A DNA stretch of 64,000 bases from an uncultured Planctomycetia bacterium (GTDB taxonomy: Bacteria > Omnitrophota > Gorgyraeia > Duberdicusellales > Duberdicusellaceae). Below the pieces are notes generated by a model that was not told the origin of the DNA, searched no databases, and saw only the letters and a list, made by a program, of their open reading frames with translations. The stretch covers positions 13,808-77,807 of the forward strand of contig CAZWJT010000007.1 of the NCBI GenBank assembly GCA_964634935.1, given 5' to 3'. Numbering within the stretch: the first letter of the stretch is position 1; each line of letters opens with the position of its first letter. Shown here piece after piece: positions 27,808 through 60,317 of this stretch. The position numbers were made by a program, and so were the translations under genes.

Positions 27808-27809
27808 GT

Positions 27810-34528: not shown

Positions 34529-34584
34529 GAATGGAGTTCTTTTCTTTCCCGGTTTTTCTTTTATAATAGGGAACACTGTAATGT

Positions 34585-35277: not shown

Positions 35278-35278
35278 T

Positions 35279-36379
35279 GTGAAGATTCCTGTTTTTTTCG
35301 AGCGTCTATACCGATATTGCTCATTCGGCACACGGCTTCTTCAGGCAAATTTTCTCTCGGGGACAGTTCCCTATAAGATAAACCTGATTGTTACTTACCA
35401 TTGTAATTCTCGCTGCAAGCATTGCGCTATTTGGCGCAAGGAACATGTTCCCGAACTCAGTGTTTTGGATTACCAAAAAATGCTCTCTCAGGTATCTGCG
35501 CATTGGATTGATGTAAGCGGGGGAGAGATAGTATTGAGAAAGGATATTCGGGATATTTTTCAGATTTGTCTCAATACTCAAAAAAGATTGGCACTCCTTC
35601 ATTTTCCCACGAATGGGTCTTTTCCTGAAAAAGTTTGGGAATTGTCACATGATATCGTGCGTATATTTCCCGGTAAACTTGTGGTGAGCGTAAGCCTTGA
35701 TGGGCCGCGTGGTCTGCACAACCAACTGCGGGGAACGGATTCCTGGGAGAAGGCGGTTGAAACCTTCAAACGTCTTCGGGAAATTACCAAGAAAAACTTT
35801 GGTGTTTTTTTCGGTTATACGATTTCTGAGGAAAATGCTTCCGTTCTCGAAGAAACTTTCCGTGATTTACGGCGGTATATTCCCAAGATTTCCTACAGAG
35901 ATATCCATATTAATATTGATCATATTAGTCCGCACTACTACGCAAATTCTTTCCGGAAGATCGACCGGGAAAAAGTATTGGCAGGCGTTTATCATTATGC
36001 ACGGAAGAGAACGTACGGTTTTGGGGTTTTTGAGTATCTTGAAAGAGCCTATCACCGTTCGATCGCGGGATATTTGAATCTGGGAAAGACCCCGCGTCAA
36101 TGCGTAGCTCTCCGTGATAGCGTCTTTATTGATCCATATGGTAATGTTTTTCCCTGTAGTATTTACGCTGAGAATTTAGGAAATATCAAGGAATATGATT
36201 TTAGTATTTCCAAGATATTGAGCTTGGAATCTGCGGGGCACCTGCGCAAAGAAATCCAAGGCGGTAAGTGTCCTCAGTGCTGGACGCCTTGTGAAGCGTA
36301 TCCAATGATTCTCGGATCTTTTTTTAAAAAACACAATCATTTCTTGGTGCAACGTAAAAGTAAAAATAATGCGTGCTAA
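35279..36379 (+). CDS. Radical SAM protein with C-terminal SPASM-like Cys cluster
   Basis: CNSRCKHC CxxxCxxC motif near the N-terminus; C-terminal CPQCWTPCEAYP auxiliary-cluster motif. Confidence 0.7.
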   Translation: MKIPVFFERLYRYCSFGTRLLQANFLSGTVPYKINLIVTYHCNSRCKHCAIWRKEHVPELSVLDYQKMLSQVSAHWIDVSGGEIVLRKDIRDIFQICLNTQKRLALLHFPTNGSFPEKVWELSHDIVRIFPGKLVVSVSLDGPRGLHNQLRGTDSWEKAVETFKRLREITKKNFGVFFGYTISEENASVLEETFRDLRRYIPKISYRDIHINIDHISPHYYANSFRKIDREKVLAGVYHYARKRTYGFGVFEYLERAYHRSIAGYLNLGKTPRQCVALRDSVFIDPYGNVFPCSIYAENLGNIKEYDFSISKILSLESAGHLRKEIQGGKCPQCWTPCEAYPMILGSFFKKHNHFLVQRKSKNNAC

Positions 36380-37445
36380 ATACGTTCGATTATTTTCCAA
36401 ATGCCTTCAGCAGAAACAATATGCGTATTTGTTCCGTCAGCCCTTTAAGCTTATTCAGCTTTTTTTTACCTACCATGGAGTTAAGCTTTCAAAAAAGAGG
36501 AAACCTTTTGTGGCCACCTTGATTCCAACGTATCGGTGCAACAGTAGCTGCCCGAAGTGCGTAAAAAAGGGGATGCACGATGTTATGCAGGAGATGACTA
36601 CCGAACAATTGAAGCGCGTCATCGATGAACTTCAGGCATTAGGTATTTCCGCGATTGATTTTACCGGGGGAGAACCGCTTCTCCGGGACGATCTCACGGA
36701 GCTTCTGCGGCATACCTCTGGCAAGGGGCTCCTCAGTCACTTAAACACAAACGGCTACTTGCTTACTCCGGAGCGTGTCCAGGATATAGTACAGAGCGGG
36801 GTAAACTCTATTAATGTTTCATTAGATAGTGTATCGCCGGAAAAGATGGAAGTTTTAACGGGTATCCCCGGAGCTTTGGCGAAAATTCAGGAAGGTTTAA
36901 TTTCTCTTCTTGCTGCTCGCGCGATGCGTCGCTCGCTTCTGGAAATAACAATTGTCACTGTACTGAGTAAAGAGAATCGGGATGAGCTTGAAGCGATTAT
37001 TGATTTTGCTCGAAAGATTGGAGTTGATGGGGTCAGTATCAATCCCTATCATGCGTTTCCTCGTCCCTTATCCGGCATACGGGATGATTCTTTTCAGGAG
37101 ACGATTGGGAAGCTGATGCGCTGGAAGAACCAAGGAGGGTTGCTTGAGAATAGCAAAGAGTATTTTTTTCTTTTACATAAGTTTTTTAAAGGTGAGCCGT
37201 TCCCCTTGCGCTGTTCAGCGGCTGATTCATACCTTATTATTGATACGTATCGGAGAATATTTCCTTGTTTCTGCTGGTTAGAGACGGGAGGCAGATCGAT
37301 TTCTTTTACAGATTCAATTCGCCAAGCAATCCAGTCAGAGGAATATCGGCAGATACTTGTCTCTGCGCGGTTGTGCCGTGCGTGCTATTGGAATTGTCAT
37401 GCGGAACTCAGTATTTTTCTTAACCCTTTTTTCCGTTATGTCTAA
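36369..37445 (+). CDS. Radical SAM protein with C-terminal SPASM-like Cys cluster (paralog)
   Basis: CNSSCPKC motif, GGEPLL SAM-binding motif, C-terminal CRACYWNCHAE; overlaps the previous gene. Confidence 0.7.
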   Translation: MRAKYVRLFSKCLQQKQYAYLFRQPFKLIQLFFTYHGVKLSKKRKPFVATLIPTYRCNSSCPKCVKKGMHDVMQEMTTEQLKRVIDELQALGISAIDFTGGEPLLRDDLTELLRHTSGKGLLSHLNTNGYLLTPERVQDIVQSGVNSINVSLDSVSPEKMEVLTGIPGALAKIQEGLISLLAARAMRRSLLEITIVTVLSKENRDELEAIIDFARKIGVDGVSINPYHAFPRPLSGIRDDSFQETIGKLMRWKNQGGLLENSKEYFFLLHKFFKGEPFPLRCSAADSYLIIDTYRRIFPCFCWLETGGRSISFTDSIRQAIQSEEYRQILVSARLCRACYWNCHAELSIFLNPFFRYV

Positions 37446-39096
37446 ACAGATAAAGGGTATACATCTTTTCATCATTCTTTTCAGCGCCCTTGTGATTCGT
37501 GTTTTTTTTCTCTCCGCATCGCATTTCCATATTCATTCTGATCATGCTACCTGGGCATTGATGGCTTTAGATTTTCTAAAAGGTAATTTTTATTTTTTTC
37601 CTGCCGGGCAAACGTTTGGCTCGCCGCTGGAGCCATTCTGTATGATTCCTTTTTTCAAGATAATCGGCAGCAATCACTATGCGGTGCGCGCCCTTGGCTT
37701 CGGAATTTCCATCGGCATTATTCTGGCGCATTATGGAATGATTCGCACGATGTTCCATAGAAGAATCGCCTTGCTCTCAGCGTGGTATTTTGCGCTTGGT
37801 CCTCAATTTCTGATCGAATGGACTTTAGAGGTTAGGGGAGGGAGGAGTCCAACGCTTATCTTTGGTCCGCTTATTCTGCTGGCGGGGTTTTTTATTTTAC
37901 GCTGTCCGGAACAAAAAAAACGGAGGCTTATCTTTCTTTATGCGTGGTGTGGATTTATTTCAGGGGTAGGGTATACAAACGACATGCTTGCTTTTACCTA
38001 TATAGGTACGTTTCTCCTTTGCGCATGTTTGCAGGATTTTCGAAGGATGGTAAAGCATTTAGTTTTTTTCCTGTTTCCGTTCTTTATCTTATATCTTCCG
38101 CATTTTTTCTACAATATAACCACAGGGGCCTCTACTTATGCGCATTTTTTCGGAATGATGAAATTATACAATCTTAAGTTTGTGCCGTTACGCATATTCC
38201 ATATGCTTGCAGAATCGTTTCCAGTGCTGATTGGCGCGCGCATCAGCCATTCATTCCAAGATTTCTTTCCCTTTCTCTCTATTCCGGTATCAGTTCTTTT
38301 TGTGGTCCTTTTTTTCCGGATGGGCAAGCTGTTTTTTGCGCATATCAGCAGGATTACTCCATGGACCAAAATCCCGCGGGCAAGAATTACTCAATGTTCA
38401 AAGCTGCTGGTTCTCAAAAATAATTTTATTGATGCGGTGCGGAATGCTGACCCCGTGGCGTATGCTTTTGTATTTTTGATTGTGCATTGCGGATTTTTCT
38501 TGGCTAGTAATTCCGGTGATCTCATTACGCACAGTCCAAGGTATCTTTTGCCGCTTTACAGTGTTCTTGTTCCGCTTTTTTTCTTTTTTCTTTTTCAGTT
38601 CCGGGCCAGGATCATTCGTTTTTTAGTTTGTGGGTTTGTTTTTTTGCTTAATCTCGGAAGCATTTTTGTGTATGCTCAAGAATGTTCTCTCCCGGGGACT
38701 CAGCGCGGCCAATGGACCGCTGATTTTCTTGATCAGAAGATGATTACCGAAACTTTACTGAGTCGGGATATACATCAGCTCTATGCCGATTATTGGATTT
38801 GCTACACAGTCGGATTTCTTTCTCAAGGACAAATTTTGGTTAGCCCTCTCTGTGGTCCAAACCGGGAAGATCGAAGGCCCTGGGATACAAAAACTATCCA
38901 GCAGACCAAGGTTCCAAAAGCGGTTATTTTTTCAATGGAAGCGGCTTACGAAGAATCCGGGTTTTTGGATTTTATCCGGAATATTCAAACACCGTATGTA
39001 CGGATCGATTTTGGGCGATTTCATGTTTATTTAACCAAAGCAATCATTTGTTTTTCAGAAAAGGGGGTGCCGTATGTCTGTGGAACGGACGATTGA
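37438..39096 (+). CDS. GT-C fold membrane glycosyltransferase (ArnT/PMT-like)
   Basis: Polytopic (more than 10 TM) protein with a C-terminal soluble domain; start at ATG 37438 overlapping the upstream stop. Confidence 0.5.
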   Translation: MSKQIKGIHLFIILFSALVIRVFFLSASHFHIHSDHATWALMALDFLKGNFYFFPAGQTFGSPLEPFCMIPFFKIIGSNHYAVRALGFGISIGIILAHYGMIRTMFHRRIALLSAWYFALGPQFLIEWTLEVRGGRSPTLIFGPLILLAGFFILRCPEQKKRRLIFLYAWCGFISGVGYTNDMLAFTYIGTFLLCACLQDFRRMVKHLVFFLFPFFILYLPHFFYNITTGASTYAHFFGMMKLYNLKFVPLRIFHMLAESFPVLIGARISHSFQDFFPFLSIPVSVLFVVLFFRMGKLFFAHISRITPWTKIPRARITQCSKLLVLKNNFIDAVRNADPVAYAFVFLIVHCGFFLASNSGDLITHSPRYLLPLYSVLVPLFFFFLFQFRARIIRFLVCGFVFLLNLGSIFVYAQECSLPGTQRGQWTADFLDQKMITETLLSRDIHQLYADYWICYTVGFLSQGQILVSPLCGPNREDRRPWDTKTIQQTKVPKAVIFSMEAAYEESGFLDFIRNIQTPYVRIDFGRFHVYLTKAIICFSEKGVPYVCGTDD

Positions 39097-40387
39097 CACA
39101 GGCTATTCTTTTTACCGCGTGCTTCTTACTACGCTTTTGATCCTTTTTTCTTGTGCCCGTTATTACGATACCATGGTTTCTTCGGTGCTTCCTGCTGAGT
39201 GTGGTGATTTTGCTGCCGTGTACGCTGGCATCAAGAATATGTCGTCCGGCGTGAGCCCTTATTCGGCTTCCGGGGGTACCTTTTATACTGGAAAATCATT
39301 TCTTACTACTACCTATAATTATCTTCCCTTTTACGGAACAATGCTTTGGTTTTTCAATAATTTTGAATATCGGACCGCACGGTATCTTTGGATCTTCTTC
39401 AATCAATTCTTTTTAGGGGTTTTACTCTATCTTTTGTTTCGCCTTTTGCGTGTTTATAAGAAGAATGCCGATTTTTTTGATTTTGCAATACTCTTTGCGC
39501 TGTTGTTTAACTTTCATCCGTTGATAACAGGTCTTACGATGGGGCAGAACCACATTTTGCTTTTGGTGATTTTTTTAAGTATGTTTCTTGCCGCATTGAG
39601 CGGCCGCGATTTTATCGCAGGTATCGTGCTTGCGCTTCTTATTTTGATTAAGATCAATTTTGGTTTTTTTCTTGTTTTTTTCCTGCTTAAGAAGCGCTGG
39701 AAAATTCTCTGGGGAACTTGTGTCGGTTGTGTCCTTGGGGTCATCGGATCATGCCTTTTAGTCAGCCCGCAATTTTATCTTGATTTTTTTAGTGACATGC
39801 TTCGGCGCATCGAACGGAATAAAGTAATTTTTTATGATCCGAATACACAGGCGTTATCGAGTTTTCTGGTGCGGGTCTTTTGGAGCAATGAATATGGAAG
39901 TATTTTTTCATTGCCGTTCTGGTTTGTAAAGCTTCTTGTCACGGTAAGCTGTCTTTGCGTTTGTGGGGTGACATTTTTCTTGGTATCATTGCGCCGGACT
40001 ATTCTCTCGCGCCAAGTAAGAGATTTCCTGGAGTGTTCGTATGTGCTTTTTTGCGTACTACTCGTTTCTCCCTATGCCTGGCGTCATTACTTTTTCTGGC
40101 TTCTTTTTTTGTTTCCGGTTGGATTCTATATTTTTCGGGGTACCGGGAATCCGGATAAAACAACATTCTTGGTGCTTTTTTTTGGTTACTCTTTTGTCGC
40201 CGTCAATCCGTTCTATCTGCTTGTTGATTTCCTAAAAGACATTCTTGGTCCGGAGATGTTTTATTCTTCGGCAATCATGGCAAAGCCTTGGACGCTTCTG
40301 CTTGATTACGGATATTTTTATATTTTAGGGATGCTTTGGCTGTATTTCAGTTTCTTTTTATTCCATGCGCGGGATCGTAACCGATAA
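39074..40387 (+). CDS. GT87/DUF2029-like polyprenol-phosphate-dependent membrane glycosyltransferase
   Basis: Polytopic membrane protein; …LILIKINFGFF… region resembles DUF2029/GT87. Overlaps both neighbours. Confidence 0.5.
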   Translation: MSVERTIDTGYSFYRVLLTTLLILFSCARYYDTMVSSVLPAECGDFAAVYAGIKNMSSGVSPYSASGGTFYTGKSFLTTTYNYLPFYGTMLWFFNNFEYRTARYLWIFFNQFFLGVLLYLLFRLLRVYKKNADFFDFAILFALLFNFHPLITGLTMGQNHILLLVIFLSMFLAALSGRDFIAGIVLALLILIKINFGFFLVFFLLKKRWKILWGTCVGCVLGVIGSCLLVSPQFYLDFFSDMLRRIERNKVIFYDPNTQALSSFLVRVFWSNEYGSIFSLPFWFVKLLVTVSCLCVCGVTFFLVSLRRTILSRQVRDFLECSYVLFCVLLVSPYAWRHYFFWLLFLFPVGFYIFRGTGNPDKTTFLVLFFGYSFVAVNPFYLLVDFLKDILGPEMFYSSAIMAKPWTLLLDYGYFYILGMLWLYFSFFLFHARDRNR

Positions 40388-42125
40388 AGCCCAAATCATT
40401 GTGGTAACCCGATTATTTGTATTTTGGTTTCAGAAGTTACATGAAAGACCAGGATGGTTTGTTGCCGCGTTTCTTTTTATTTTTTTGAGTATCTGCATAA
40501 GTAGTATGCTGCAAACTTCCGCCACTTTTGATGAAACTTTTCATATCACCGAAGGGGTCTACCCGTTTACGAATGCCCAGCTTTCGGTTATCTTTGAGCA
40601 TCCGCCATTAGTGCGCACCTATGCGGCACTTCCCTTGATTTTTTTCCAGAAACAGCTGCAGCTTCAATGGCCGCAGGAAAAACACAGTTATCAGAAATTC
40701 TGTGATGAGTTTGTTTGGGGTGCGAACAAAAAGAATAGCCTTTTGATCATTTTCTTAGGCCGGGTTATGATCGTTTCGCTTGGAGTTTTGCTCGGTTTTT
40801 TTATTTTCAAGTTTGCTGCGCTTCTTTTTGGATCCCAAGCTGGCATTTTTGCGCTTTTTTTATATGTGTTTTGTCCAAATTGTATTGCTCACAGCCGGTT
40901 GATTACTACTGATATCGGAGGAGCCTGTTTTTCATTCATTGCGTTGTATTTTTTCTGGAAATTCTTATTTCGGAGATTCTCAACAAATATTTTTTTATTT
41001 GGCCTTTTTCTCGGGTTTGCCTGTTCAGCAAAATATTCAGCGCTTTTCCTTTATCCTTTTGCTTGCGGAGGGGTTATGTTTTTTACGGCGAGAGGAAGCC
41101 GCAAAAAATATTTTTCCGGACTACTTGGGGCTTTTCTGGTCAGTTTTTTTGTTATCTGGGCAAATTATGGTTTTCAGCTGAAAACGCTTACTACAAAAGC
41201 AGAGAGGCCGCATTTTGCCTTGGACAATCTTCCAATCCCGGAATTCGGAAAAACTCTTGCGTATGGAGTCGTCGAAAACCTGTATTTTCCCTGGGATTTT
41301 TTCAAGGGGATTTACGGTTTATCCAAGCATAACCTTGGAGGGCATCCGAGCTATATCCGAGGAATATACAGCCGGAGCTCGGTTTGGTACTATTATCTCT
41401 ATGCGTTGTTTTTGAAAACTCCCATACCGGTGCTTGTTCTTTTTCTCTGGGTTTTTTGGATTACGGTAAAGCGTTGGCGCGATCAACCAAAGCTTTTTCT
41501 GCTCTATGCGCTGGGTGTTTTTTTCGGAGTATCGTTTTTAAGTAAACAGCATGTTGGTATCCGTCATGTTATTCTGCTCTATCCCATACTGTTTGTTTTT
41601 ATCAGCAGTTTGATCCGGAGTCTGGTCTGTCGCGTGCATTCTTTAAAAATTGCAAAGATCATTGTGCTCATTGTCCTGTGCGGCTGGTATGTTTTTGAAA
41701 GTATGACCCATTGGCCTGATTATTTAAGTTACTTTAATAACGTTATCGGGAAAAGAGAAAATGCCTATCGGCATCTTGTTGATTCCAATCTTGACTGGGG
41801 GCAAGGATTATTCCAGTTAAAAAAATTCATGGACAGGGAAAATATCTCTAGAATAAAGCTTGTTTACTTTGGAACAGCCCGGCCCGAAGCCTATGGTATT
41901 AACTATGAACTTCTTCCTTCGACTTTCGCGCAGCATTTGGTCCGGGTCGGACAGGCATGTCCGGGCGATTTTGGATCTATCCCTGCGCGTGGTATTCTCG
42001 CGGTTAGTGCAACGGATTTAACGGGTGTTTATATCGGCGGCCCCGGAACATATTCCTGGCTTAGAAACTATACTCCTTGGGAACATTTATCCGGCTCGAT
42101 ATTCATCTATAGGATTCCAAATTAA
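40365..42125 (+). CDS. GT-C fold glycosyltransferase, PMT_2/ArnT family (protein O-mannosyltransferase-like)
   Basis: First-loop TFDETFHITEG matches the PMT/ArnT catalytic DE motif; more than 10 TM helices and a C-terminal soluble domain. Confidence 0.65.
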   Translation: MRGIVTDKAQIIVVTRLFVFWFQKLHERPGWFVAAFLFIFLSICISSMLQTSATFDETFHITEGVYPFTNAQLSVIFEHPPLVRTYAALPLIFFQKQLQLQWPQEKHSYQKFCDEFVWGANKKNSLLIIFLGRVMIVSLGVLLGFFIFKFAALLFGSQAGIFALFLYVFCPNCIAHSRLITTDIGGACFSFIALYFFWKFLFRRFSTNIFLFGLFLGFACSAKYSALFLYPFACGGVMFFTARGSRKKYFSGLLGAFLVSFFVIWANYGFQLKTLTTKAERPHFALDNLPIPEFGKTLAYGVVENLYFPWDFFKGIYGLSKHNLGGHPSYIRGIYSRSSVWYYYLYALFLKTPIPVLVLFLWVFWITVKRWRDQPKLFLLYALGVFFGVSFLSKQHVGIRHVILLYPILFVFISSLIRSLVCRVHSLKIAKIIVLIVLCGWYVFESMTHWPDYLSYFNNVIGKRENAYRHLVDSNLDWGQGLFQLKKFMDRENISRIKLVYFGTARPEAYGINYELLPSTFAQHLVRVGQACPGDFGSIPARGILAVSATDLTGVYIGGPGTYSWLRNYTPWEHLSGSIFIYRIPN

Positions 42126-42236: not shown

Positions 42237-43829
42237 ATGAGGCAGTTCATAAAAATAGTATGGTTCTCTATTCTACTCTTAGAGGTATCTTTTGTTTATT
42301 GCGAGAACAGCATCTCTGTTGATTCATACTTTCCTATTCCCGAACAGCAGTATCGAAACCTTAAAGCCGAACAGTTTTCTTCCGTAAATACTGAGGTGCG
42401 GATTGCTTTCCAGAAATATGACCCGTCCGGCCAGCTTGTTTTCCAGGCATCTCGTAATCCGCTCGCTAAGAACGCGACGAATTTTCCCATCGCAGGCTCC
42501 ATACCTTTTACGAGCGACGGCAATGTCTATTCGGCTTTATTCAAGCCGCTTACCATTGCTGATCTTACCCAGCCAAACCAGCCGCTCAATGTGCCATTTG
42601 GTAACAAGGAAATTATTACGAATGCCATCGAGAATGTCGAGTTTCTAAGCGATGGGAGCACGAATCCCGATGGTTCAGTCCGGGGGATTTCGACGTGGCC
42701 GGGGATGGGAACATGCGAAGAGGTAAACGGGCAATTTTATATCGGTATGTACCAGGCAAACTGCGGTGACTCGGCGTACCTTGCTTGGCTCAATGAATCA
42801 TCAGGTTTTTATGTCGCAGCCGGAGTGGGTATGGGCTGGGCAAGTCCTTTGTCAGCGCTTGGTATGGGAGTAGTCGGCATCAAGATGGGCACGATTGATT
42901 ATAAATGCTGCAGGCTTCAGGAGAACCGTCCGATTCCTCAAGGAGAAAATCTTCAGGATTGCCGTCCCTTGGCAAATCAGGTGCAGCAGATTTCCGATCA
43001 GATTAAAGGTTATTACGATGGATACTATGATGCATTTAATGATGCATGGAACCGAGGCTGTTTCCGGACAACAAATCCTCCGGCATTGATCAAAACATAT
43101 ACGCATGGGGCGCGTACCGGGCAGTGGAGAGGGTGTGACCGGTATACTTGGGCGTGTCAAACCCCGCAATGCCAGGGCGCTTGCACAACCTGTAATACGT
43201 GTACCTACACGGAAACCATTACCCATACAGGTCCAGATGCGTCGTGTGGATGTGCAGCGTATAATTCATGTGATTATCCGTGTACGCAGTGGGCTTGGGG
43301 AGAAAATGATTGTGGTAATTGTGGCAATTATTGTTCTCTTTATTGGTGTAACTGGTGTTGGCAGGGGATTTTCTATCTACCGAATTGTGCGGTCTGCGGT
43401 ACGGGTGCTTGCGCACAGTGGTCATGCAACAGCTGTTGGTATTCGTATACAGGAACATGCAATGGTCCGCATTCTTCCTGTGGCTGTGGTACCTATAATT
43501 CCTGTTCGCATAGTCATACTTCAACGGTTACCAATGCGAACTGCACGCAATGCGGGTGTGCGGCGTATTCCCAGGTGTGCTGTCCAAATCCAGGAGAAGG
43601 AAATGTTACCAATGGTTGGAATTGGACGATTACGGATGATGGCTGCGGTGTTGGAAATAAGCCGCAGTGCGAAGCTGATATCGCGATTCTCGACGGAAAT
43701 ACAAGTGGTCTTGACGCTCTGAAACAGGCATATTTTGATGCAAAGCAAGCTCTTTGTAATTGTGCCTGTCAGGGCAGTCCTCAAATGGCGTCTTGCGTTA
43801 ATTCTTGTTTTGAGGGGATGAGGGAATAA
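42237..43829 (+). CDS. Cassette A, type-1: secreted Cys-rich protein (~530 aa), unknown family
   Basis: Signal peptide, then SVDSYFPIPE motif; conserved WPGMGTCE, GVGMGWASPLSA, YKCCRL blocks; C-terminal region packed with CGC / YNSC repeats. Confidence 0.65.
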   Translation: MRQFIKIVWFSILLLEVSFVYCENSISVDSYFPIPEQQYRNLKAEQFSSVNTEVRIAFQKYDPSGQLVFQASRNPLAKNATNFPIAGSIPFTSDGNVYSALFKPLTIADLTQPNQPLNVPFGNKEIITNAIENVEFLSDGSTNPDGSVRGISTWPGMGTCEEVNGQFYIGMYQANCGDSAYLAWLNESSGFYVAAGVGMGWASPLSALGMGVVGIKMGTIDYKCCRLQENRPIPQGENLQDCRPLANQVQQISDQIKGYYDGYYDAFNDAWNRGCFRTTNPPALIKTYTHGARTGQWRGCDRYTWACQTPQCQGACTTCNTCTYTETITHTGPDASCGCAAYNSCDYPCTQWAWGENDCGNCGNYCSLYWCNWCWQGIFYLPNCAVCGTGACAQWSCNSCWYSYTGTCNGPHSSCGCGTYNSCSHSHTSTVTNANCTQCGCAAYSQVCCPNPGEGNVTNGWNWTITDDGCGVGNKPQCEADIAILDGNTSGLDALKQAYFDAKQALCNCACQGSPQMASCVNSCFEGMRE

Positions 43830-43832
43830 AAG

Positions 43833-44801
43833 ATGGGTATACAAAAAAATATTTTTTCTGTTTTTTTCTGCACTCTTGGCATTGTAACTTTTTTCGCATA
43901 TGCACAGGAAGCGCAAACCATTCGGGTAACTACATATTATCCGTCGCCAAATGTAAAAACATTGTCGCTGATTGTTCAGGATATGGAAGTTCGCAAAACC
44001 ACCGAAACGAGCATGGTGCCGCGTTTAGAGATCCCTGTAGGTGGTGTTTTTTATGTCGACAGCCCGGTTGCAGGGAGTGCTTTTCGTATTGATAGCGCTG
44101 GGGTTTCTTTCTCCGAGAATGCTTATGTTCATGAGACGATAGGATACCAGTGTGTTCGAAGCAATAATAACAGGGTTTGCAGCGGTAATGTTACCACGGG
44201 AAATTTAACGCCGCGGTCTTTTAATGGGAATGCTTCATATCTTCGTTTGAATGGTATCGCGTTGCATTCAATGCCGGTATTGGTTTTAAATGAAGAGGGG
44301 AATACCAGAATTCATAATGATTACCAGGGGATGCAGAACGCAACAAATACTTTGACCAATACCTATCCGCTTGCGCAGGATGCCTGTGCTATGTGCGAGA
44401 TGTGCGAACAGAAAGAAACGACGGCTTTAAAGAATGCGTGTTATACAGCGGAAAACTGCAATGCAGGATACATCAATGCCGACAGGAATTTTGATCTCGC
44501 GGCATGTTTAAATACGGCAAAAACCATTGCCACAAATACCCTTGGAACGCTTACCTATACCAACGCGCAAGGTCGTTTTTCGAATAAAAAAGGTATTTTC
44601 CGGATGACGAAGACTGGCGAGTATGCCTTTGGCGGTGGAGTAGGCGTGGGCATTGGCGGGCACTTTGGAGCTGGGGTGGGAGCTCTTTTCGGCACAAATA
44701 CAAAACCTGCTCCAGGCTGGCTTGGTTTTATTCCGACAGGTGATCCGGCAAAAAGTTTTGGTTATAAAACATTTCAGTATCAAACAAAGGATCCGCAGTG
44801 A
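43833..44801 (+). CDS. Cassette A, type-2: secreted protein (~320 aa), Gly-rich C-terminus, unknown family
   Basis: Signal peptide, RVTTYYPSPN motif, CAMCEMCE block, GGGVGVGIGGHFGAGVGALFG and YKTFQY near the C-terminus. Confidence 0.65.
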   Translation: MGIQKNIFSVFFCTLGIVTFFAYAQEAQTIRVTTYYPSPNVKTLSLIVQDMEVRKTTETSMVPRLEIPVGGVFYVDSPVAGSAFRIDSAGVSFSENAYVHETIGYQCVRSNNNRVCSGNVTTGNLTPRSFNGNASYLRLNGIALHSMPVLVLNEEGNTRIHNDYQGMQNATNTLTNTYPLAQDACAMCEMCEQKETTALKNACYTAENCNAGYINADRNFDLAACLNTAKTIATNTLGTLTYTNAQGRFSNKKGIFRMTKTGEYAFGGGVGVGIGGHFGAGVGALFGTNTKPAPGWLGFIPTGDPAKSFGYKTFQYQTKDPQ

Positions 44802-45421
44802 GAGTAAGTTTAGTGTCAAAAATTTTGTTTTTCATAGTATGCTGCATAGTGAGCGCGGTTCATCCGTGCGGGATGGTTTTGGCGAATGACGAAACAGTCA
44901 ATATTTCGACTTTTTATCCTTCTCCCAAAGGGATTTATGACCGTATCGATGTGGTGAATGCCGGTGGAATTTCTGGAAGCGCTCTTATTGGTAATACCCT
45001 GAAGATGATTAATACCGACCCAGCGGGAACCGTGGTTGATGGTCCGGGAACAGATATTGATAAGGATGGTAATATTAAGTCCAAGGCTTTTGCTTTTTTG
45101 GGGCAGAAATACTATACGCCGACTCTCAGGGCTCGCTCTTTAACCGTGACCCAGAATTCTCAGTGGCGGATTCCATCTTGGCAGGTGGAAGTGGGCGCAT
45201 TAGATTGGGGAGTTGTTCTTGCGAGCTTAGCCTTTAGCATCGATCAGACTGCAGAGTGTCCAAATGGCCTGGTGAATTCGATTACTAATTTAAGTGGTAT
45301 CTCACCCTTTTGTTTGGGAGTACCTGTGTCATTAAGCCCGCCGGTAGCAATAGTGCTGTGCGTGGGCCAGGAAAAGTTTATTCTTGGGTATAGCTGTTTG
45401 AATTTATATGCTCAAAATTAA
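44798..45421 (+). CDS. Cassette A, type-3: secreted protein (~205 aa), unknown family
   Basis: GTGA overlap with the previous gene; signal peptide, ISTFYPSPKGIYD motif, GQKYYTPTLR, LSGISPFCLGVP blocks. Confidence 0.6.
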   Translation: MRVSLVSKILFFIVCCIVSAVHPCGMVLANDETVNISTFYPSPKGIYDRIDVVNAGGISGSALIGNTLKMINTDPAGTVVDGPGTDIDKDGNIKSKAFAFLGQKYYTPTLRARSLTVTQNSQWRIPSWQVEVGALDWGVVLASLAFSIDQTAECPNGLVNSITNLSGISPFCLGVPVSLSPPVAIVLCVGQEKFILGYSCLNLYAQN

Positions 45422-45464
45422 GAAAAAAATCACAAGCAGGAAAAATCTGATATAATATAACCAT

Positions 45465-47030
45465 ATGCGGAGCAAGATAACCAGTGTGATTCTCCGAATC
45501 TATCAAAGAGGGGGTATACTTGGTTTTGTTTGTTTGATGCTTTTCTGTTCTTTGTCTTCCGCAAGCACCCTCACCGTCGATACATATTTTCCAGCTCCAG
45601 AAGTACGTTATCGTAAAGTTTTAGCCCAAGAGGTAGTTTCTAAACGCACTGAAATTGATGGTCGTCTTATCAAATATGATGAATTAGATGGAACAAAGAT
45701 TGTTCTTGAGATCGCAACAACCCCTCTGACGAAAGCCGCTTTTTCTGCGGAAGCAAAAACATTCACCAGCGATTCTGATATTGTCGTATCTCTTTTTAAA
45801 CCGCTTACCGTGCCCGCTTCTTCGCTCAATAATGCCAAGATTTATGTAAACGCAGTTGAAGATTTGATTTCTTTTAGCGATGGAGCAAACCGTATTGGAA
45901 TATGGCCCGGCCTTGGGTCCTGTGAACGGCAAAGTTTTCTTTTTCTTGGTTATTACACCGTTGATTGCGGAGATGGCGCGTATCTCGCCTATATTCAAGA
46001 GAGTTCAGGTATTTATTTTGCTATCGGCGGAGGTATGGGTTGGGCGAGTCCTCTTTCAGCGATAGGAACTGGATTCGGCATAAAATCCGGAAGCGTTGAT
46101 TATATCTGTTGCCGGTTGGATCAAAATGCGGTTATTCCTATTGGAAGCGGTAATATGAGTTGCGGAGTAGAAGAGACTGAGGTAAAAGACGCAAAGACCA
46201 GAGTAGATATAAAGCAGCAAGAATATAATGCGGCTTTTGATGCGGCAAAAGCCGCTGGCTGTTTTCGAGAGATGGGAGTAGGCGGTACAAAATACCATAC
46301 AAATTGGCCCGCTCCTGGAGTTGATGTTTCTTATGAGAAGACCTGGTTAGACGGCACAAACGTGGAACAGGAGTTTGGCAGATGGCTTGGTTGCAGTATG
46401 TATACCTGGGAATGCCGCGCACCAGCTGATGCGATATGTAACGGTAGTTGCAACACGTATTGTACATGTCAGAATTCTGCTTGTGGCTGTTGTGCTTCGG
46501 TGTGTACAGCGTATTGCGCTTGTTCAAGCTGTGGCTGTTGTTCTTCCACATGTACTTCGTATTGTTCTTGTGCTACTGCTGCTTGCGGCTGCGCGACTAA
46601 AGACCCAAAAACAGGAGCATGCACATCGTATAACACATGTCAGAATTCTGCTTGTGGCTGTTGTGCTTCGGTGTGTACTGGGTATTGCGCTTGTTCAAGC
46701 TGTGGCTGCTGTGCTACTGCCTGCACTTCGTATTGTTCCTGCGCTACTTCTGCTTGTGGCTGTTGTGTCTATAACAAAGTTTGCTGTGCTAATCCTGGAG
46801 AAGGGGTTGGAGGAAGCGGTTGGCGGTGGTACGAAGACCAGAACGGCGCATGTAACCGCGCTAACTGCAATAGCTTGATTTCTACTCTTTCTTCTGCAGG
46901 GCAGGCTTTGCGAGATGAAAAGGCAAACTACGAAAATAAGAAACGTTCTTATTGTACTTGTGTTTGTAACGCGCTGGGCAACCCCGGCGAACCGTGCATC
47001 AGTACTTGTATGGTGAGCAATCAGTTATAG
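45465..47030 (+). CDS. Cassette B, type-1: secreted Cys-rich protein (521 aa) with internal 57-aa tandem repeat
   Basis: Signal peptide, TVDTYFPAPE motif, WPGLGSCE, GGGMGWASPLSA, YICCRL. Two CGCC-rich 57-aa repeats; VCCANPGEG near the C-terminus as in A1. Confidence 0.65.
   Translation: MRSKITSVILRIYQRGGILGFVCLMLFCSLSSASTLTVDTYFPAPEVRYRKVLAQEVVSKRTEIDGRLIKYDELDGTKIVLEIATTPLTKAAFSAEAKTFTSDSDIVVSLFKPLTVPASSLNNAKIYVNAVEDLISFSDGANRIGIWPGLGSCERQSFLFLGYYTVDCGDGAYLAYIQESSGIYFAIGGGMGWASPLSAIGTGFGIKSGSVDYICCRLDQNAVIPIGSGNMSCGVEETEVKDAKTRVDIKQQEYNAAFDAAKAAGCFREMGVGGTKYHTNWPAPGVDVSYEKTWLDGTNVEQEFGRWLGCSMYTWECRAPADAICNGSCNTYCTCQNSACGCCASVCTAYCACSSCGCCSSTCTSYCSCATAACGCATKDPKTGACTSYNTCQNSACGCCASVCTGYCACSSCGCCATACTSYCSCATSACGCCVYNKVCCANPGEGVGGSGWRWYEDQNGACNRANCNSLISTLSSAGQALRDEKANYENKKRSYCTCVCNALGNPGEPCISTCMVSNQL
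46455..46796 (+). repeat. In-frame tandem direct repeat, 171-bp period, two copies at about 90% identity
   Basis: TGTCAGAATTCTGCTTGTGGCTGTTGTGCTTCGGTGTGTAC… recurs at 46467 and 46638; it encodes the Cys-rich TCQNSACGCCASVCT.YCACSSCGCC… units of protein B1. Confidence 0.85.
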
Positions 47031-47033
47031 CGT

Positions 47034-47933
47034 ATGAAAAAAGAATATTTGCGCTTTATTGTTCTTTTCTGGTGGTGCATTTTTTTCTCTGGTTACGCTT
47101 TTTCTCAAAACCAAGAGATAAGGATGAGCACGTACTATCCTACGCCTAATCTTGATGCAAACCAGTTTTTTGTTGATGAAGTTGATATCGAGAAAACAAC
47201 TCCAAAGACAACCCCGCCTTCATTTCGCATTGAGCAGGGCGGAGAGTTATTTGTAGGTACGGATAACGCAAACCGGATTCTTACGATCAATAATGCCGGA
47301 GTTTCCGCAAACGGAAATTCCTATGTTGAAGAAACCATAAGCTATGAGTGTGATCTTGCAACCGGCATATGTTCCGGAAGTTTAGCAACAAAAGATATGG
47401 AGCCGCGAGCCTATGGCGGCCAGTCTCCTTACATACGGTTAAGCGGTATTGCGCTCTATAGTATGCCGAGGTTGGTTGAAGTCGCGAATGATTGGACCTC
47501 AATGACCGACGGGGGAATTTTGAATGCGGTCAATGATGCGAATAATTACCTGCGCAATGTTTATCCAACAACCCGGCAAGGTTGTTTTACCTGCGAAGCC
47601 TGTGAATTGGAGAGTGATCCAGTAGCCTGTTTTACGGCGCATGGGTGCGGGTATGTGGCAGGGGAAGCTTTTGATTTAACGTTGTGCCTTACCGACACAT
47701 CCAATTTGGCAGGAGGTCATTTTGACGCAATGCTTGAAGATCCCGCGGCAAATCCCGGATATTCGCGGGAACGAGGCGTGCATGGGTTGACTAAGAATGG
47801 CGAATGGGCTGCTGGGATTGGTATTGGCGGTGTTTTAGGCGGGCATTTTGGCATTGGAGGCGCTATTCTTTTCGGTGGTGGAACACCGATGAATCGAAGC
47901 TATAACACCTTTGAATATAATTATAAAGAATAA
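47034..47933 (+). CDS. Cassette B, type-2: secreted protein (299 aa), Gly-rich C-terminus
   Basis: Signal peptide, RMSTYYPTPN motif, CFTCEACE block, GIGIGGVLGGHFGIGGAILFGGG and YNTFEY. Confidence 0.65.
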   Translation: MKKEYLRFIVLFWWCIFFSGYAFSQNQEIRMSTYYPTPNLDANQFFVDEVDIEKTTPKTTPPSFRIEQGGELFVGTDNANRILTINNAGVSANGNSYVEETISYECDLATGICSGSLATKDMEPRAYGGQSPYIRLSGIALYSMPRLVEVANDWTSMTDGGILNAVNDANNYLRNVYPTTRQGCFTCEACELESDPVACFTAHGCGYVAGEAFDLTLCLTDTSNLAGGHFDAMLEDPAANPGYSRERGVHGLTKNGEWAAGIGIGGVLGGHFGIGGAILFGGGTPMNRSYNTFEYNYKE

Positions 47934-47934
47934 G

Positions 47935-48633
47935 ATGAAATCGCCATTGAATCAAAAGATGCTCTTTCGGGTGCTTGCGCTTTTGGCATTCCTTTCTATG
48001 GCCCATACTAGTTCTTTTTCTCAAGGAACTGATGAGGAAGTCATCATTTCGCCCTTTTACCCGTCACCGAAGGGAATTTATGATAATCTGGAAGTCGTCA
48101 CTGATTTAATATTGGATCCTGGCCAAGACGGACGGGTTGGCGAAGGGGTATTGAAAATTGCCGGAGGAGCGCCTACTCCGTCAGGACAAGGATTAAACGC
48201 TCCAGGGATTTTGATGACAACCCCTACTTTTCCGGGAGAAAAGATAACCAGGATTAAAGAAGATGGTTCTCTGCGCGCCTCAGGTTTCCAATTTATTGGC
48301 GATAAATACTATACGAAAACATTAAGAGCCGGAGAGCTTGTGCTTACTGACAGCACGGGGGCATGGAAAGTTCCTACGCTCCAGATTGATAACGCTGAAT
48401 GGCTTGGAGGCTGGAGTGATCCCCGGTGGGGTGTCGGGTTTGGAAGTTCTACGAGTTTTGATTGTAACGACGGAGGTAATTTAGGATTTATCGGAGGCGT
48501 CCAAAACCTCAGCGGAATTATGCCGTGGTGTATCGGTATTCCTATTCCTCCAGATTTTTGTATAGCTGTTCTTTTGTGCGCGGGAGAAGAGCAGTTTATT
48601 ATGAGCTATAAATGCATTCGTCCTCAGTATTAA
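47935..48633 (+). CDS. Cassette B, type-3: secreted protein (~232 aa)
   Basis: Start set at ATG 47935, just after the B2 stop. Signal peptide, ISPFYPSPKGIYD motif, GDKYYTKTLR, LSGIMPWCIGIP. Confidence 0.6.
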   Translation: MKSPLNQKMLFRVLALLAFLSMAHTSSFSQGTDEEVIISPFYPSPKGIYDNLEVVTDLILDPGQDGRVGEGVLKIAGGAPTPSGQGLNAPGILMTTPTFPGEKITRIKEDGSLRASGFQFIGDKYYTKTLRAGELVLTDSTGAWKVPTLQIDNAEWLGGWSDPRWGVGFGSSTSFDCNDGGNLGFIGGVQNLSGIMPWCIGIPIPPDFCIAVLLCAGEEQFIMSYKCIRPQY

Positions 48634-48647
48634 AAAAGGAGAAAGAC

Positions 48648-49172
48648 ATGATCAAGAAAACCTTGTGGCTATTTCTGTTGACTTGTTCGTTTGGTTTTTC
48701 GTGTTTTGCGGTTTCTGATCCTATTGACATTAAAAATAATGTTCTTGATAAATTGGATATCCCTGTGTATCCTTCGATGCAATCGCCCGAGGCTTACGGG
48801 ATTTCGCTTAATTATACCCTGCAGGATACTTGCGTTGATTGCGTTATTTCTTTCTTTAAAACAGAACTCAAGAAAAAAGGCTGGAAGGTTGATGACGAAA
48901 AACTTGACCGAAGTTTTCAGGAGGCTTTTAGCAAGGTTCGCGGTCAGCTTGAGGGAATGCAAGGAAGTTATCCGCAGGGTTTTGATACGAAAACAGCAGA
49001 AGCGATACTTTCCGGGAAGAACGACAGTTACATTAAGGAACAAATTAAGAAAATGTCTCCAACGGTGATTGAGGCAAGAAGAGAAGAAGACGGGATCATT
49101 TGCCGTATTTTTATCCATGGAACTTCGGGGACCCAGGGAATGAAAATAACTTTAACGCTTTCTGCCCAATAA
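48648..49172 (+). CDS. Secreted hypothetical protein (174 aa) inserted between cassettes B and C
   Basis: Good SD AAAGGAGAAAG; signal peptide; lacks the (Y/F)(Y/F)P-x-P N-terminal motif of the cassette proteins. Confidence 0.5.
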   Translation: MIKKTLWLFLLTCSFGFSCFAVSDPIDIKNNVLDKLDIPVYPSMQSPEAYGISLNYTLQDTCVDCVISFFKTELKKKGWKVDDEKLDRSFQEAFSKVRGQLEGMQGSYPQGFDTKTAEAILSGKNDSYIKEQIKKMSPTVIEARREEDGIICRIFIHGTSGTQGMKITLTLSAQ

Positions 49173-49178
49173 TACTGA

Positions 49179-50558
49179 ATGCGGTTGACGCTTGACAGAT
49201 GCTCTAAAAAAACATCGTGCGGTGTTTTTTTAGGGCTTTTGTTCTTTGGGGTAGGTTTTTGCGGTTATACCGCCTATGCGGCAAACGATCTTACTGTCGA
49301 TACCTATTATCCCGCTCCAGCGTTAAATTACAAAGAAGCAAAGGCTCATGATTTTTCTTCACGCGATACTGAGGTAAAGAAGAAGATTGAGAAGCAAGAC
49401 CGGGCTTTTCTTGCTTCGGTTGATTCCCTGGATAAGAATCAATTTCCTACAGCTGGCGCAAAGGATTTTACAGACGCAGCTGATTCAATCTATATCGGAC
49501 TCTTCCGTGATTCTTCAAATGCATCCAATGTACGTCCTTTGCGCGTATTGAACGGAGCAGCGTTCGCCCCTACATCATCGCTCATTATCAATAAGGCGCG
49601 GCATGTATCGTATCTTACTGAAAACGGGGAAACAATGAGTATGTGGCCTGGATTAGGACGATGTGCTTCCCGTAGTATTTGGAAGCTCATTGCCGGATTC
49701 GCCCAGTGTGCCAGCGATGAATATCTCGCAGATTATTCGGAAAGTCCTGGTTTGTATCTTGGTGGTGGCGTAGGAAGCGCCAGCATGGGCAATATGGGTG
49801 GGGGAATTGGCTTTAAAATGTCGACGATTAACTATACCTGCTGTAAGTTGCGAGGAGATGAAGAGCCGGTAACCAGTATAGACGGATGTGTTACAAAACA
49901 AAATGACGCCGAGACAGCACGGCGTAATCTGGATCTTGCCAAATGCAGGTATATCCAAGCGATTCGTGATGCAAAAGCCGCAGGGTGTAATCACAGCAGA
50001 GATTTTGCTTGTTTCGGGAACAGTTGTCAAGATACAGGGGCGACCTGCACAAAGCGATTTGAAGATATGTCTATTAATGAAAACGCTTGTCCGTATTTAT
50101 TAAGCGGGCAACCTGTACCGTCGCCTCTACCGGCTGATTCAAGAATGCCCAGTCTTTTAGCTTTACTTGGGCTTATACCTTCAGAACCTCCCTCTATATG
50201 TTATGCAGGATGCACCGAATGTTCAACGTTCTGTTGTGGGTATGATTCAGCGGGGTTTTGTACCTCAACCTGCTGTAATTCTTGGGACGTCTGCAACGAG
50301 GCGGATTGTCAAAGTCGGATTGCAGATATAGACCAGAAAAAACAAGATATTGAGAATGCCCGGGCGCAGCTGAGGAATGTGCTCGAGGATTTATGTAATA
50401 CGTGCGTCTGCGGCCGCTGGGATGGTATTCGTTCTGAGATTGAAGCTTTCGTCCCTGGTTTGGATCTTGCCGGTTACATCGGTTCCTTGCTCAATCCGGG
50501 AGAATCTCTCTGTGATAATATGTGTAGTACTCAGATGCTTGACGCCGCGATACAATAA
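49179..50558 (+). CDS. Cassette C, type-1: secreted Cys-rich protein (459 aa)
   Basis: Signal peptide, TVDTYYPAPA motif, WPGLGRCA, YTCCKL, C-terminal LCNTCVCG as in A1/B1 (LCNCACQG / YCTCVCN). Confidence 0.65.
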   Translation: MRLTLDRCSKKTSCGVFLGLLFFGVGFCGYTAYAANDLTVDTYYPAPALNYKEAKAHDFSSRDTEVKKKIEKQDRAFLASVDSLDKNQFPTAGAKDFTDAADSIYIGLFRDSSNASNVRPLRVLNGAAFAPTSSLIINKARHVSYLTENGETMSMWPGLGRCASRSIWKLIAGFAQCASDEYLADYSESPGLYLGGGVGSASMGNMGGGIGFKMSTINYTCCKLRGDEEPVTSIDGCVTKQNDAETARRNLDLAKCRYIQAIRDAKAAGCNHSRDFACFGNSCQDTGATCTKRFEDMSINENACPYLLSGQPVPSPLPADSRMPSLLALLGLIPSEPPSICYAGCTECSTFCCGYDSAGFCTSTCCNSWDVCNEADCQSRIADIDQKKQDIENARAQLRNVLEDLCNTCVCGRWDGIRSEIEAFVPGLDLAGYIGSLLNPGESLCDNMCSTQMLDAAIQ

Positions 50559-50571
50559 TGGTGGCATAGTT

Positions 50572-51405
50572 ATGAAAATGAACGTTCAAAAAAAAGTAAG
50601 TATCCTCAAGTGCTTTCTCTATTGTTTTTTAGTTATTATTTCTGGTAGCGCGTACGCTGAAGGACAAGAAGTGCAGATGACTACTTTTTATCCGACGCCA
50701 AACGCGGTAACCAAGAATTTCATCGTTGATATTCTTCATATCGAAGATACGACGGGGGTTCCTGGCCCGGTTTTTACCATTACCACGGAAAGTGGAGTTG
50801 ACGGCTGGCTTAAGTTACGAGGAACAAATAGCTCAGGTGTTTTAACAGATGTTCTTGAAATAAATAATCTGGGGCTTGTTTTTCGCAAAAATGCGTACAG
50901 TGATGAAACCAGGGCTTATCCTTCAGTCCAACAACCCGGGATACTGGAACTACGACAATTTGGAACAGGGTCAGATTCTACTCCTGCTATTGAACTCAGA
51001 GGTATCCCTTTGACGCATACTCCGGAACTTGTTGTTTCTGTAAACCCATTCCGCAATAATTTTAATCCATTTAGTGATACTTTTTTTACACAGTATGATG
51101 ATCTGCAAAACGGTTGTTTATCCGCGGGGGGCGATCCCGAAACTTGCTTACAACTTTTAACTCCAATAGGCCGAGCAAGTTTTGACGTGATCACTGCTCC
51201 GTATGCGATTCCGGCATCAGAAAAATATTCTTCGCGGAAAGCGCTTTTCCTCTTGAACCAAACTCCAGAAACTGTTTTTGGGGTTGGGATATATTGTGGC
51301 ACAGGGAATGGCTGGGGTCCGGGTGCGGGTATACTTTTTGGGTTTGGAGGCGGCACAAACGCGCTCTATAAAACATTTAAGTACAGCGTGTATACGGGGA
51401 ATTAA
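50572..51405 (+). CDS. Cassette C, type-2: secreted protein (~277 aa)
   Basis: Start set at ATG 50572; the track ORF from 50377 overlaps C1 and is rejected. Signal peptide, QMTTFYPTPN, G-rich GILFGFGGG and YKTFKY. Confidence 0.6.
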   Translation: MKMNVQKKVSILKCFLYCFLVIISGSAYAEGQEVQMTTFYPTPNAVTKNFIVDILHIEDTTGVPGPVFTITTESGVDGWLKLRGTNSSGVLTDVLEINNLGLVFRKNAYSDETRAYPSVQQPGILELRQFGTGSDSTPAIELRGIPLTHTPELVVSVNPFRNNFNPFSDTFFTQYDDLQNGCLSAGGDPETCLQLLTPIGRASFDVITAPYAIPASEKYSSRKALFLLNQTPETVFGVGIYCGTGNGWGPGAGILFGFGGGTNALYKTFKYSVYTGN

Positions 51406-51406
51406 A

Positions 51407-52006
51407 ATGAGCATGAAAGTCGTTCAACAGTTCTGTATCGTAGCCGTCATTTTTTCTTTACAGGCGATTGTATCTGCCGCGGATGAAACGATACAACTTA
51501 CGCCGTTTTATCCTTCGCCGAAAGGTATCTATAATAGCGTACGCACCACTGAACTGACGACGGTTCAGGATAGTTTGCTGTTATCACAAGATGCGGAATT
51601 AAAATATCATAACGGGAGTTCTTCTCTCAACAACGACAGATTTCTGACAAATCGGCTTTCCTTCAATGGAGAAAAGTACTATACTCCGATACTGAAGACG
51701 CAGATTTTGGATGCGTCTGATATTCTTCCGGCGACAGGCGACTGGAAAGTTCCGCGACCAAGTATTAATTTGCCTTCCATTCCTGCTCTTGCGTTGGGGG
51801 CTTTTACCGGCACGGTCGTGTGCGGTCAAAGCGAGGTGATTAACAGCGTTATTTCAATAAGTACGGCTGTCGGTTTTTGTGTCCCGATTCCTATCGGCGG
51901 CATGGGAGGAACGATGCCAGTTATCTGTCTCGGCCGAGAGGACTTGAAGCTTTTTGGTAGCTGTATGAATACGGATTTAAGTGAAACAGGAATTACCGCT
52001 TTTTAA
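51407..52006 (+). CDS. Cassette C, type-3: secreted protein (~199 aa)
   Basis: Start at ATG 51407, 1 nt after the C2 stop. Signal peptide, LTPFYPSPKGIYN, GEKYYTPILK, VICLG. Confidence 0.6.
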   Translation: MSMKVVQQFCIVAVIFSLQAIVSAADETIQLTPFYPSPKGIYNSVRTTELTTVQDSLLLSQDAELKYHNGSSSLNNDRFLTNRLSFNGEKYYTPILKTQILDASDILPATGDWKVPRPSINLPSIPALALGAFTGTVVCGQSEVINSVISISTAVGFCVPIPIGGMGGTMPVICLGREDLKLFGSCMNTDLSETGITAF

Positions 52007-59378: not shown

Positions 59379-59800
59379 AATTGAACGGTATCGCAAATCG
59401 AGAATTTCTGAGCAACGTCCTTTTTCCCTGCAAAAAGGTGATTTTGCATTTTCTGTAAGTTGCCCTTGAAGTGTTTGTGCCCACTCCCAGATGTTGTATC
59501 AACGATATTATAAGACGAAAGCTTCATGCGATTTTGTTCTGGGCTCGAGAATATCGTTCATTTTTTTCCCGTTGAAAATGTCTAGTCTGCCTGCAGGGTA
59601 AAACTATTTTAGATAAAAATCAGAAAAATCTGATATTTCGCGATAGTTTTTCTTAAAATAATAAACGCCGAACTACCCTTGACAATACTCTGGATTTATG
59701 CTACGCTTTAAATGTGGATACGCTCTTTGATAGGTTTTTCTTTATAATCATTTAAGCTTATCGAAAAAGAGCAAACATATCCGGAAAGGAGGGATAGAAG

Positions 59801-60211: not shown

Positions 60212-60240
60212 TCCAGGACTTTTCATGGTTTGAATACCAC

Positions 60241-60278: not shown

Positions 60279-60317
60279 ACCTGGGCTAATCTATTTCTTT
60301 GAATAAAACAGTTAGTA

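Follow-up and report, generated by a model that had tools for sequence, protein, structure and literature searches.

In a 64,000-nt stretch of DNA from an uncultured Planctomycetia bacterium (contig CAZWJT010000007.1; hereafter the window), two paralogous genes, A1 (42237–43829, + strand) and B1 (45465–47030, +), encode proteins of 530 and 521 amino acids (aa) that contain 43 and 54 cysteines, respectively. We propose that both proteins are secreted and serve as structural components of an as yet uncharacterised assembly at the cell surface, in which a Cys-rich insert forms an exposed tip module held together by disulfides, and we put the probability of this reading at about one half. The Cys-rich region itself is real and is under selection on the frame in which it is read here. 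Disulfide bonding, surface exposure and function we infer from the lines of evidence set out below. An earlier note, made from the sequence alone, had described dense and periodic Cys motifs in the C-terminal parts of A1 and B1 and had suggested a disulfide-knotted or metal-binding surface module.

A Cys-rich insert within a conserved scaffold

Among the window's open reading frames (ORFs) of 150 aa or more, for which the median Cys content is 1.7%, the three highest values belong to B1 (10.4%), A1 (8.1%) and a third paralog, C1 (6.3%; 49179–50558, +; 459 aa, 29 Cys). We refer to these proteins and their homologs as type 1. The motifs reported earlier are all found in the frame given for them: CGCAAYNSC, CGNCGNYC, CNWCW, VCCPNPGEG and CNCAC in A1, and ACGCCASVCTAYCACSSCGCC, VCCANPGEG and CTCVC in B1. 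The segment 45465–47030 is the entire B1 ORF (as in the ORF list; the product is identical to database protein P0001), and the Cys-rich part is confined to aa 267–467 (46263–46865, +), which hold 40 Cys. The insert of A1 spans aa 276–477 (43062–43667, +), and that of C1 is shorter (106 aa, 13 Cys). These regions are thus not C-terminal, as had been thought; each is an internal insert that is followed by a conserved helix and a Cys-containing tail. In the core of the B1 insert (132 aa), 29.5% of residues are Cys, arranged in 11 CxC, 6 CC, 10 CxxxC and 2 CxxC motifs with TCT-like and YC-x-C units, and charged residues are almost absent. The A1 core (150 aa) is 19.3% Cys, with seven CxxC motifs in A1, and has an unusually high content of Tyr and Trp (12.6% together, compared to 6.9% in the B1 core).

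It had also been noted that Cys-codon periodicity creates long spurious ORFs, and such ORFs are indeed present. The +1 frame is free of stop codons across both Cys-rich stretches, giving ORFs at 43105–43722 in A1 and 46375–46878 (+) in B1, which are enabled by the Cys/Ser/Thr/Ala codon composition. Three lines of evidence support the frame used here, which, if wrong, would have removed the basis of the whole description. First, the N-domain and the C-terminal helix and tail flank the insert in the same frame in all 12 members of the family. Second, P0006, a homolog from independent metagenomes, has the same insert frame motifs. Third, B1 contains a 171-nt (57-aa) tandem duplication whose copies (46449–46591 and 46620–46762, both +) are 87% identical over 143 nt. 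Within the 47-aa duplicated core, seven codons differ synonymously versus five with conservative replacement. Every Cys of this core is retained, and five differ by synonymous TGT/TGC changes only, a signature of purifying selection on this frame.

Alignment of the 12 type-1 proteins gives the same order of parts in each: signal peptide, strand motif, N-domain, Cys-bounded segment, variable insert, second Cys-bounded segment and tail. A hydrophobic signal whose end is of the A-x-A type stands at the N terminus of 12 of 12 proteins, as read by eye. In B1, the signal peptide (aa 1–32; 45465–45560, +), likewise read by eye, is followed by the strand motif TLTVDTYFPAP (aa 35–45) at the mature N terminus. 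The conserved N-domain (aa 33–232; 45561–46160, +), delimited by alignments and the profile search, includes WPGLGxC, a Gly-rich hydrophobic segment and Y-x-CC, with four invariant Cys; in the family as a whole it measures ∼200 aa and has the form WPGxGxC, Gly-rich hydrophobic stretch, Y-x-CC. Next comes a segment bounded by the invariant C233 and C266 (C-x32-C; 46161–46262, +), in which AlphaFold2 predicts a helix at residues 234–263 with block-mean predicted local distance difference test (pLDDT) values of 62–86. Beyond the insert lies a second such segment, from the invariant C468 to C499 (C-x30-C), for which a helix is predicted at 465–503 (pLDDT 78–89). The segment 46866–47030 (+) comprises this helix, the tail CTCVC...C...C and the stop codon; the tail is short throughout the family and follows the pattern C.C.C...C...C.

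The two long helices are the only confidently modelled parts of B1. In the model of P0005, a homolog with a short insert, the helices (pLDDT 70–90) are likewise predicted, with a β-hairpin between them. Nine of the 12 sequences have C-x30/31-C in the second segment, and six, including A1, B1, C1 and P0006, have C-x32/33-C in the first. The insert, by comparison, varies 7-fold in length among the 12 representatives (27–202 aa, with 2–40 Cys), while the lengths of the helices are nearly fixed. Because the helix spacing is near constant, its bounds are invariant Cys, and the length between is variable, sequences and models together suggest an antiparallel hairpin of two ∼31-residue helices that is disulfide-stapled at both ends and carries the insert at its far tip. 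The staples would probably pair C233 with C499 and C266 with C468. A Foldseek search of the PDB gave no match at E ≤ 0.001; the nearest shapes were prefoldin-type helix-hairpin-helix structures, with TM-scores relative to the target of 0.43–0.47, which are not significant.

Homology among A1, B1 and P0006 extends to the insert, where identity (36% and 31%) is close to that in the N-domain. Its two ends are conserved—in B1 as W..GC..YTW.C at the start and CG..VCCANPGEG..GW.W at the end—and enclose an idiosyncratic repeat core, with repeat periods of ∼17 and 57 aa. The earlier note had held that homologs without the Cys repeats would count against its claim, and on this point the family is divided. 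P0006 alone shares the long insert, and the eight other homologs have short linkers with 2–6 Cys. Because only P0006 shares it, the Cys-repeat region is a clade-specific expansion rather than a family-wide trait. Of the three paralogs, A1 and B1 are sisters (∼40% identity) and C1 is older.

A rare family and its four-gene module

An exhaustive profile search of 1.84 billion cluster representatives, with the N-terminal 270 aa as query, returned 12 type-1 representatives, three of which are A1, B1 and C1. A word-indexed homolog search with full-length B1 found B1 alone, its candidate list being saturated by Cys words, and the same kind of search with an N-domain profile found two proteins. A search of a genome collection with one type-1 family profile revealed no related locus. 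Whole type-1 proteins matched no Pfam family at E ≤ 1, and none of the ten module proteins described below matched Pfam, NCBIfam or PHROG. Neither the family profile nor the B1 core matched any PDB sequence, and literature searches yielded no relevant work on the N-terminal motif or on surface or Cys-rich proteins of Omnitrophota.

Almost every gene of the window, a piece of bacterial chromosome, lies on the + strand, and A1, B1 and C1 belong to a group of 10 closely packed genes (42237–52006, all +). These form three cassettes, each with a type-1, a type-2 and a type-3 gene, plus one extra gene, X. In the first cassette, A1 is followed by A2 (43833–44801), a type-2 gene whose product has a signal peptide, TTYYPSP, a Gly-rich C-terminal segment and the end YKTFQY, and by A3 (44798–45421), a type-3 gene whose product has a signal peptide and STFYPSPKGIYD. 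In the second, B1 precedes B2 (47034–47933; type 2) and B3 (47911–48633; type 3). X (48612–49172), the fourth module gene, is present once in the window, after this cassette, and encodes a secreted protein of ∼175–190 aa. The third cassette consists of C1, C2 (type 2) and C3 (type 3). As called mechanically, the ORFs of C2 (from 50377) and C3 (from 51278) begin too early and overlap the preceding genes. Because signal peptides place the real starts further downstream, we take these to be the ATGs at ∼50572 and ∼51407, giving likely genes of 50572–51405 and 51407–52006. Promoter and terminator scans stayed at chance level. A Gly-rich hydrophobic segment, G-x-G-V-G-x-G...G-x-G, is common to type-1 and type-2 proteins (hhalign probability 96.9%), and the C-terminal end of type 2 is conserved as Y-K/N-T-F-x-Y.

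To locate related loci, we built a degenerate DNA pattern of the N-domain by hand; exact look-ups supplied further ones. Within the window, the pattern matches the three paralogs only. In public collections it identified relatives in a metagenome-assembled genome (MAG) labelled Planctomycetales (L003), in Hainich groundwater (L005, L007) and in digester samples (L006, L008). A match in Chitinophagales (L004) yielded no tblastn hit and was set aside as chance. Wherever flanks exist, the gene order type 1–type 2–type 3–X is kept, with X absent in L006 only. The neighbours of the module differ: uvrB in L001, as in the window; carbon monoxide dehydrogenase/acetyl-CoA synthase (CODH/ACS) genes and polA in L012; and PilZ genes in L014 and L003. 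Because gene order is constant across these differing neighbourhoods, the module is a self-contained unit. It is single-copy in all related loci and triplicated in this window only, with one X.

In L012, the CODH/ACS genes (1570–3753) lie directly upstream of the module, and this host is thus taken to be a Wood–Ljungdahl anaerobe. The samples from which the related loci came are digester sludge and groundwater. Hosts of the module look like strict anaerobes, and the labels of the related loci point to uncultured Planctomycetota- or Omnitrophota-like lineages.

The product of X contains the motif (D/E)(T/S)C-x-x-C and, after it, a helix that ends in KKGW. HMA metallochaperones carry an MTCxxC site, and the motif is reminiscent of HMA or thioredoxin-type CxxC sites; X had no Pfam match at E ≤ 1, HMA included. 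CxxC is present in five of six orthologs and missing in that of L001, the locus of the Cys-rich P0006. That X might be a thiol oxidoreductase or metallochaperone dedicated to the module was weighed and not adopted, because CxxC is absent exactly in the P0006 lineage. For the same reason, X provides no link between the module and a dedicated partner in redox or metal handling.

A shared N-terminal strand and an envelope neighbourhood

Proteins of types 1, 2 and 3 all begin with a signal peptide and then, 4–8 residues on, x-[ILV]-x-[ILV]-[ST]-[TSP]-[YF]-[YF]-P-x-P. This holds for the window (nine genes, 42312–51530) and for L001, L003, L005–L007, L012 and L014. In type 1 the motif takes the form x-I/V-x-V/I-S/T-T-Y-Y/F-P-x-P, and in type 3 it extends to YYPSPKGIYD. 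Within the window, it is confined to the nine cassette genes. Outside the three types, L007 encodes, beside the module, a 540-aa protein (2072–3694, –) with the same signal peptide and YYPSP N terminus; this protein is tail-fibre-like, with a Peptidase_S74 chaperone domain (2.3e-16) and a PHROG tail spike match (1e-52). A 169-aa protein at 3718–4227 (–) in L007 has the same N terminus, as do database proteins P0020–P0030, which include short fibre proteins of the GNVGIGT type and one protein from a Candidatus Omnitrophica MAG. From these sequences we conclude that the YYPxP motif is probably a common element by which cell-surface proteins dock or assemble. A phage origin was also considered; the viral contig collection contains no match to the type-1 pattern or to that of the N-terminal motif, and the idea was dropped.

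The arrangement recalls donor-strand fibre subunits of the chaperone–usher kind, in that an alternating-hydrophobic extension is found at the mature N terminus of types 1–3 at all loci. It differs in that no PapD or usher family is encoded in the module or its flanks, X matching no family.

Upstream of the cassettes, the window contains an envelope and glycan island (26197–42125), with Wzz/GNVR, Wzy_C, three PMT_2 enzymes of the glycosyltransferase (GT) C type, GT9, GT2 and GT87. In the same island lie a P-loop ATPase gene with AAA_31/CbiA/ParA domains, possibly a tyrosine kinase partner, and three radical S-adenosylmethionine (SAM) enzyme genes, one with a B12-binding domain and one with SPASM. 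Another B12 radical-SAM gene and a gene for an 857-aa STT3-type oligosaccharyltransferase occur downstream, within 57984–62891. The cassette proteins may be glycosylated. At 9165–11653, a gene of the CsgG family of curli-type outer-membrane secretion channels (1.6e-39) is flanked by an unannotated 189-aa ORF and a gene for a tetratricopeptide repeat protein. Its product could be an export route for surface proteins, although it lies 32 kb from the cassettes. Three clustered tRNA genes, one on the – strand and two on the +, are found at 16668–17166.

The idea of a surface module thus has indirect support, from the Sec-type signal peptides, the N-terminal motif shared with tail-fibre-like proteins and the envelope genes nearby. 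By inference from these features, the module would build a surface structure.

Probable pairing of the cysteines and the proposed assembly

If the Cys of these proteins form disulfides within each chain, gains and losses are expected to come in pairs, a constraint that does not apply to metal-thiolate clusters. To assess this, we counted Cys in the mature proteins, with signal peptides removed. Numbers for type 1 are 12, 14, 14, 14, 14, 16, 18, 19, 26, 38, 42 and 52, and hence even in 11 of 12 cases (binomial p ∼0.003), P0004 being the odd one. Even numbers are also seen for seven of eight type-2 and seven of nine type-3 proteins, or 25 of 29 across the three types. These counts favour intramolecular disulfides, as do the invariant Cys that flank the helices at constant spacing, and so of the two options raised in the earlier note it is the disulfide-knotted one that we prefer.

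Several observations weigh against a disulfide-held module at the surface. Parity is not fully independent evidence, as homologs share ancestry. The hosts look strictly anaerobic, and extracellular disulfides are less self-evident in such organisms; in addition, no thiol-oxidase gene was seen in the window. The B1 core, at 29.5% Cys with its CxC and CC motifs, is metallothionein-like in composition. Surface exposure is argued from signal peptides and by analogy. Finally, the structural models have mean pLDDT values of 47 and 54.5, with the insert and most of the N-domain below 50.

In view of that composition, the insert might instead be an extracellular or periplasmic metal-thiolate module, whose reduced Cys bind Zn, Cu, Ni, Fe, Cd or metal-sulfide clusters and which serves as a secreted metallothionein-like sink or store, conceivably a redox-active one. 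We regard this as possible, though unlikely. The Cys density of the B1 core (∼30%), its CxC, CC and CxxxC motifs and its near lack of charged residues would suit such a role, as would the anaerobic hosts and the co-encoded X, whose CxxC site and following helix resemble HMA in five of six orthologs. Metallothioneins, however, are small, lack aromatic residues and are not secreted. The type-1 module, in contrast, is secreted and embedded in a 521-aa protein, and Tyr and Trp are abundant in both the A1 and B1 cores. Most family members have just 2–6 Cys at this position and thus lack a Cys-rich insert altogether, and an even count is maintained across very different total numbers of Cys. A comparison with metallothionein-like and keratin-associated repeats had been suggested as a check, and neither family matches the isolated cores of A1, B1 or P0006, even at E ≤ 10; no other Pfam family did so at this threshold either, although the composition filters of HMMER may hide weak matches. 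The lack of an HMA match in X, and of CxxC in its ortholog at the P0006 locus, further argue against a metal-binding role.

A role in which the inserts link subunits to one another by disulfides, hardening an envelope layer or fibre as an intermolecular matrix, appears to us equally doubtful. Precedent comes from the planctomycetal YTV-domain Cys-rich cell-wall proteins of Rhodopirellula and Gemmataceae, which are secreted, have a narrow phyletic range in bacteria of the Planctomycetota–Verrucomicrobiota–Chlamydiota (PVC) type and are found in wall preparations (PMC8567305). Type-1 proteins resemble these in being secreted, Cys-rich and apparently destined for the envelope, and the related locus L003 carries a Planctomycetales label. 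They differ in having no Pfam YTV hit, in their N-domain, helical hairpin and tip insert, in their anaerobic hosts and in the four-gene module. Chlamydial OmcA and OmcB, Cys-rich secreted envelope proteins of the same superphylum, are thought to act via intermolecular disulfides, and keratin-associated proteins are a further example of such cross-linking. No match to chlamydial families (OMP6 included) or to keratin families was found, and the even counts in 11 of 12 proteins better fit closed pairing within the chain. The three co-encoded secreted partners, with their assembly-like N-terminal strand, and the odd count of P0004 would be in line with cross-linking; against it, the short insert of most members implies that the insert is dispensable for assembly.

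A bolder proposal, which we consider distinctly improbable, would combine several of these elements. The module would build an appendage or lattice, not identified before, of anaerobic PVC-type bacteria, made of subunits and tail-fibre-like proteins that dock via the YYPxP strand, with a hyper-Cys tip on A1 and B1 that, under anoxia, would form no disulfides and would bear metal-thiolate or metal-sulfide clusters for metal scavenging or electron handling. Less credible still is that the insert is a substrate for thioether cross-linking, in which the SPASM enzyme encoded at 35279–36379 would create sulfur-to-carbon links at Cys, as known from ranthipeptides and sactipeptides. Three radical-SAM genes, one of them SPASM, do lie 5–9 kb upstream of the cassettes, but they sit within the glycosyltransferase cluster, and the related loci have no such enzyme adjoining the module; the radical-SAM gene near the module in L003 is, as read from its sequence, of another type, and the same is probably true of L014. 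Lastly, an artefactual origin (an incorrect frame, a frameshift or low-complexity DNA that does not encode protein), to which the second open frame across the region might point, is refuted by the same-frame flanking domains in 12 proteins, the insert motifs of P0006 and the synonymous-only changes of Cys codons.

We therefore return to a disulfide-held module at the tip of a surface protein. Features of generic disulfide-rich extracellular modules are present, with an export signal in 12 of 12 type-1 proteins and an even number of Cys in 11 of 12. The type-1 Cys module would be a new and unrelated version of the disulfide-rich surface module, which is itself of a known kind. Giardia variant-specific surface proteins, keratin-associated proteins and the β-helix repeats of beetle antifreeze proteins are repetitive, tandem-duplicated extracellular modules rich in Cys, Thr, Ser, Ala and Gly. 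The inserts of A1 and B1 are similar in composition and in growth by tandem duplication; they differ in that the former are eukaryotic, no Pfam match exists, and the periods here are ∼17 and 57 aa rather than 12. Flagellin has a conserved assembly part and two long, paired helices whose turn accommodates an inserted domain of variable length. The likeness here is one of design logic only. There is no homology, the type-1 hairpin is bounded by Cys, and its assembly element would be the N-terminal strand and the β-rich domain.

According to the model we favour, the four-gene module would encode a surface assembly in a few uncultured anaerobic lineages and has been triplicated here. The type-1 scaffold would consist of the N-terminal β-strand, the N-domain with its four invariant Cys, the Cys-stapled helical hairpin and the Cys tail. 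At the far tip of the hairpin, the insert would have grown in one clade (A1, B1 and P0006), most recently by the 57-aa tandem duplication in B1. It would fold compactly through intramolecular disulfides and be protease-resistant and exposed, ∼45 Å out from the assembly core, serving as the outward-facing part with an adhesive or protective function.

The family has neither annotation nor solved relative and comprises roughly a dozen of almost two billion sequence clusters, yet it belongs to a strictly conserved four-gene module. If the model is correct, this module marks a surface structure, not recognised before, in groundwater and digester anaerobes that have yet to be cultured, and it would illustrate how a conserved scaffold can acquire a Cys-rich module that then expands. 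The core of B1 is among the most Cys-dense bacterial sequences that one is likely to meet, and it bears on whether strict anaerobes build disulfide-knotted surfaces.

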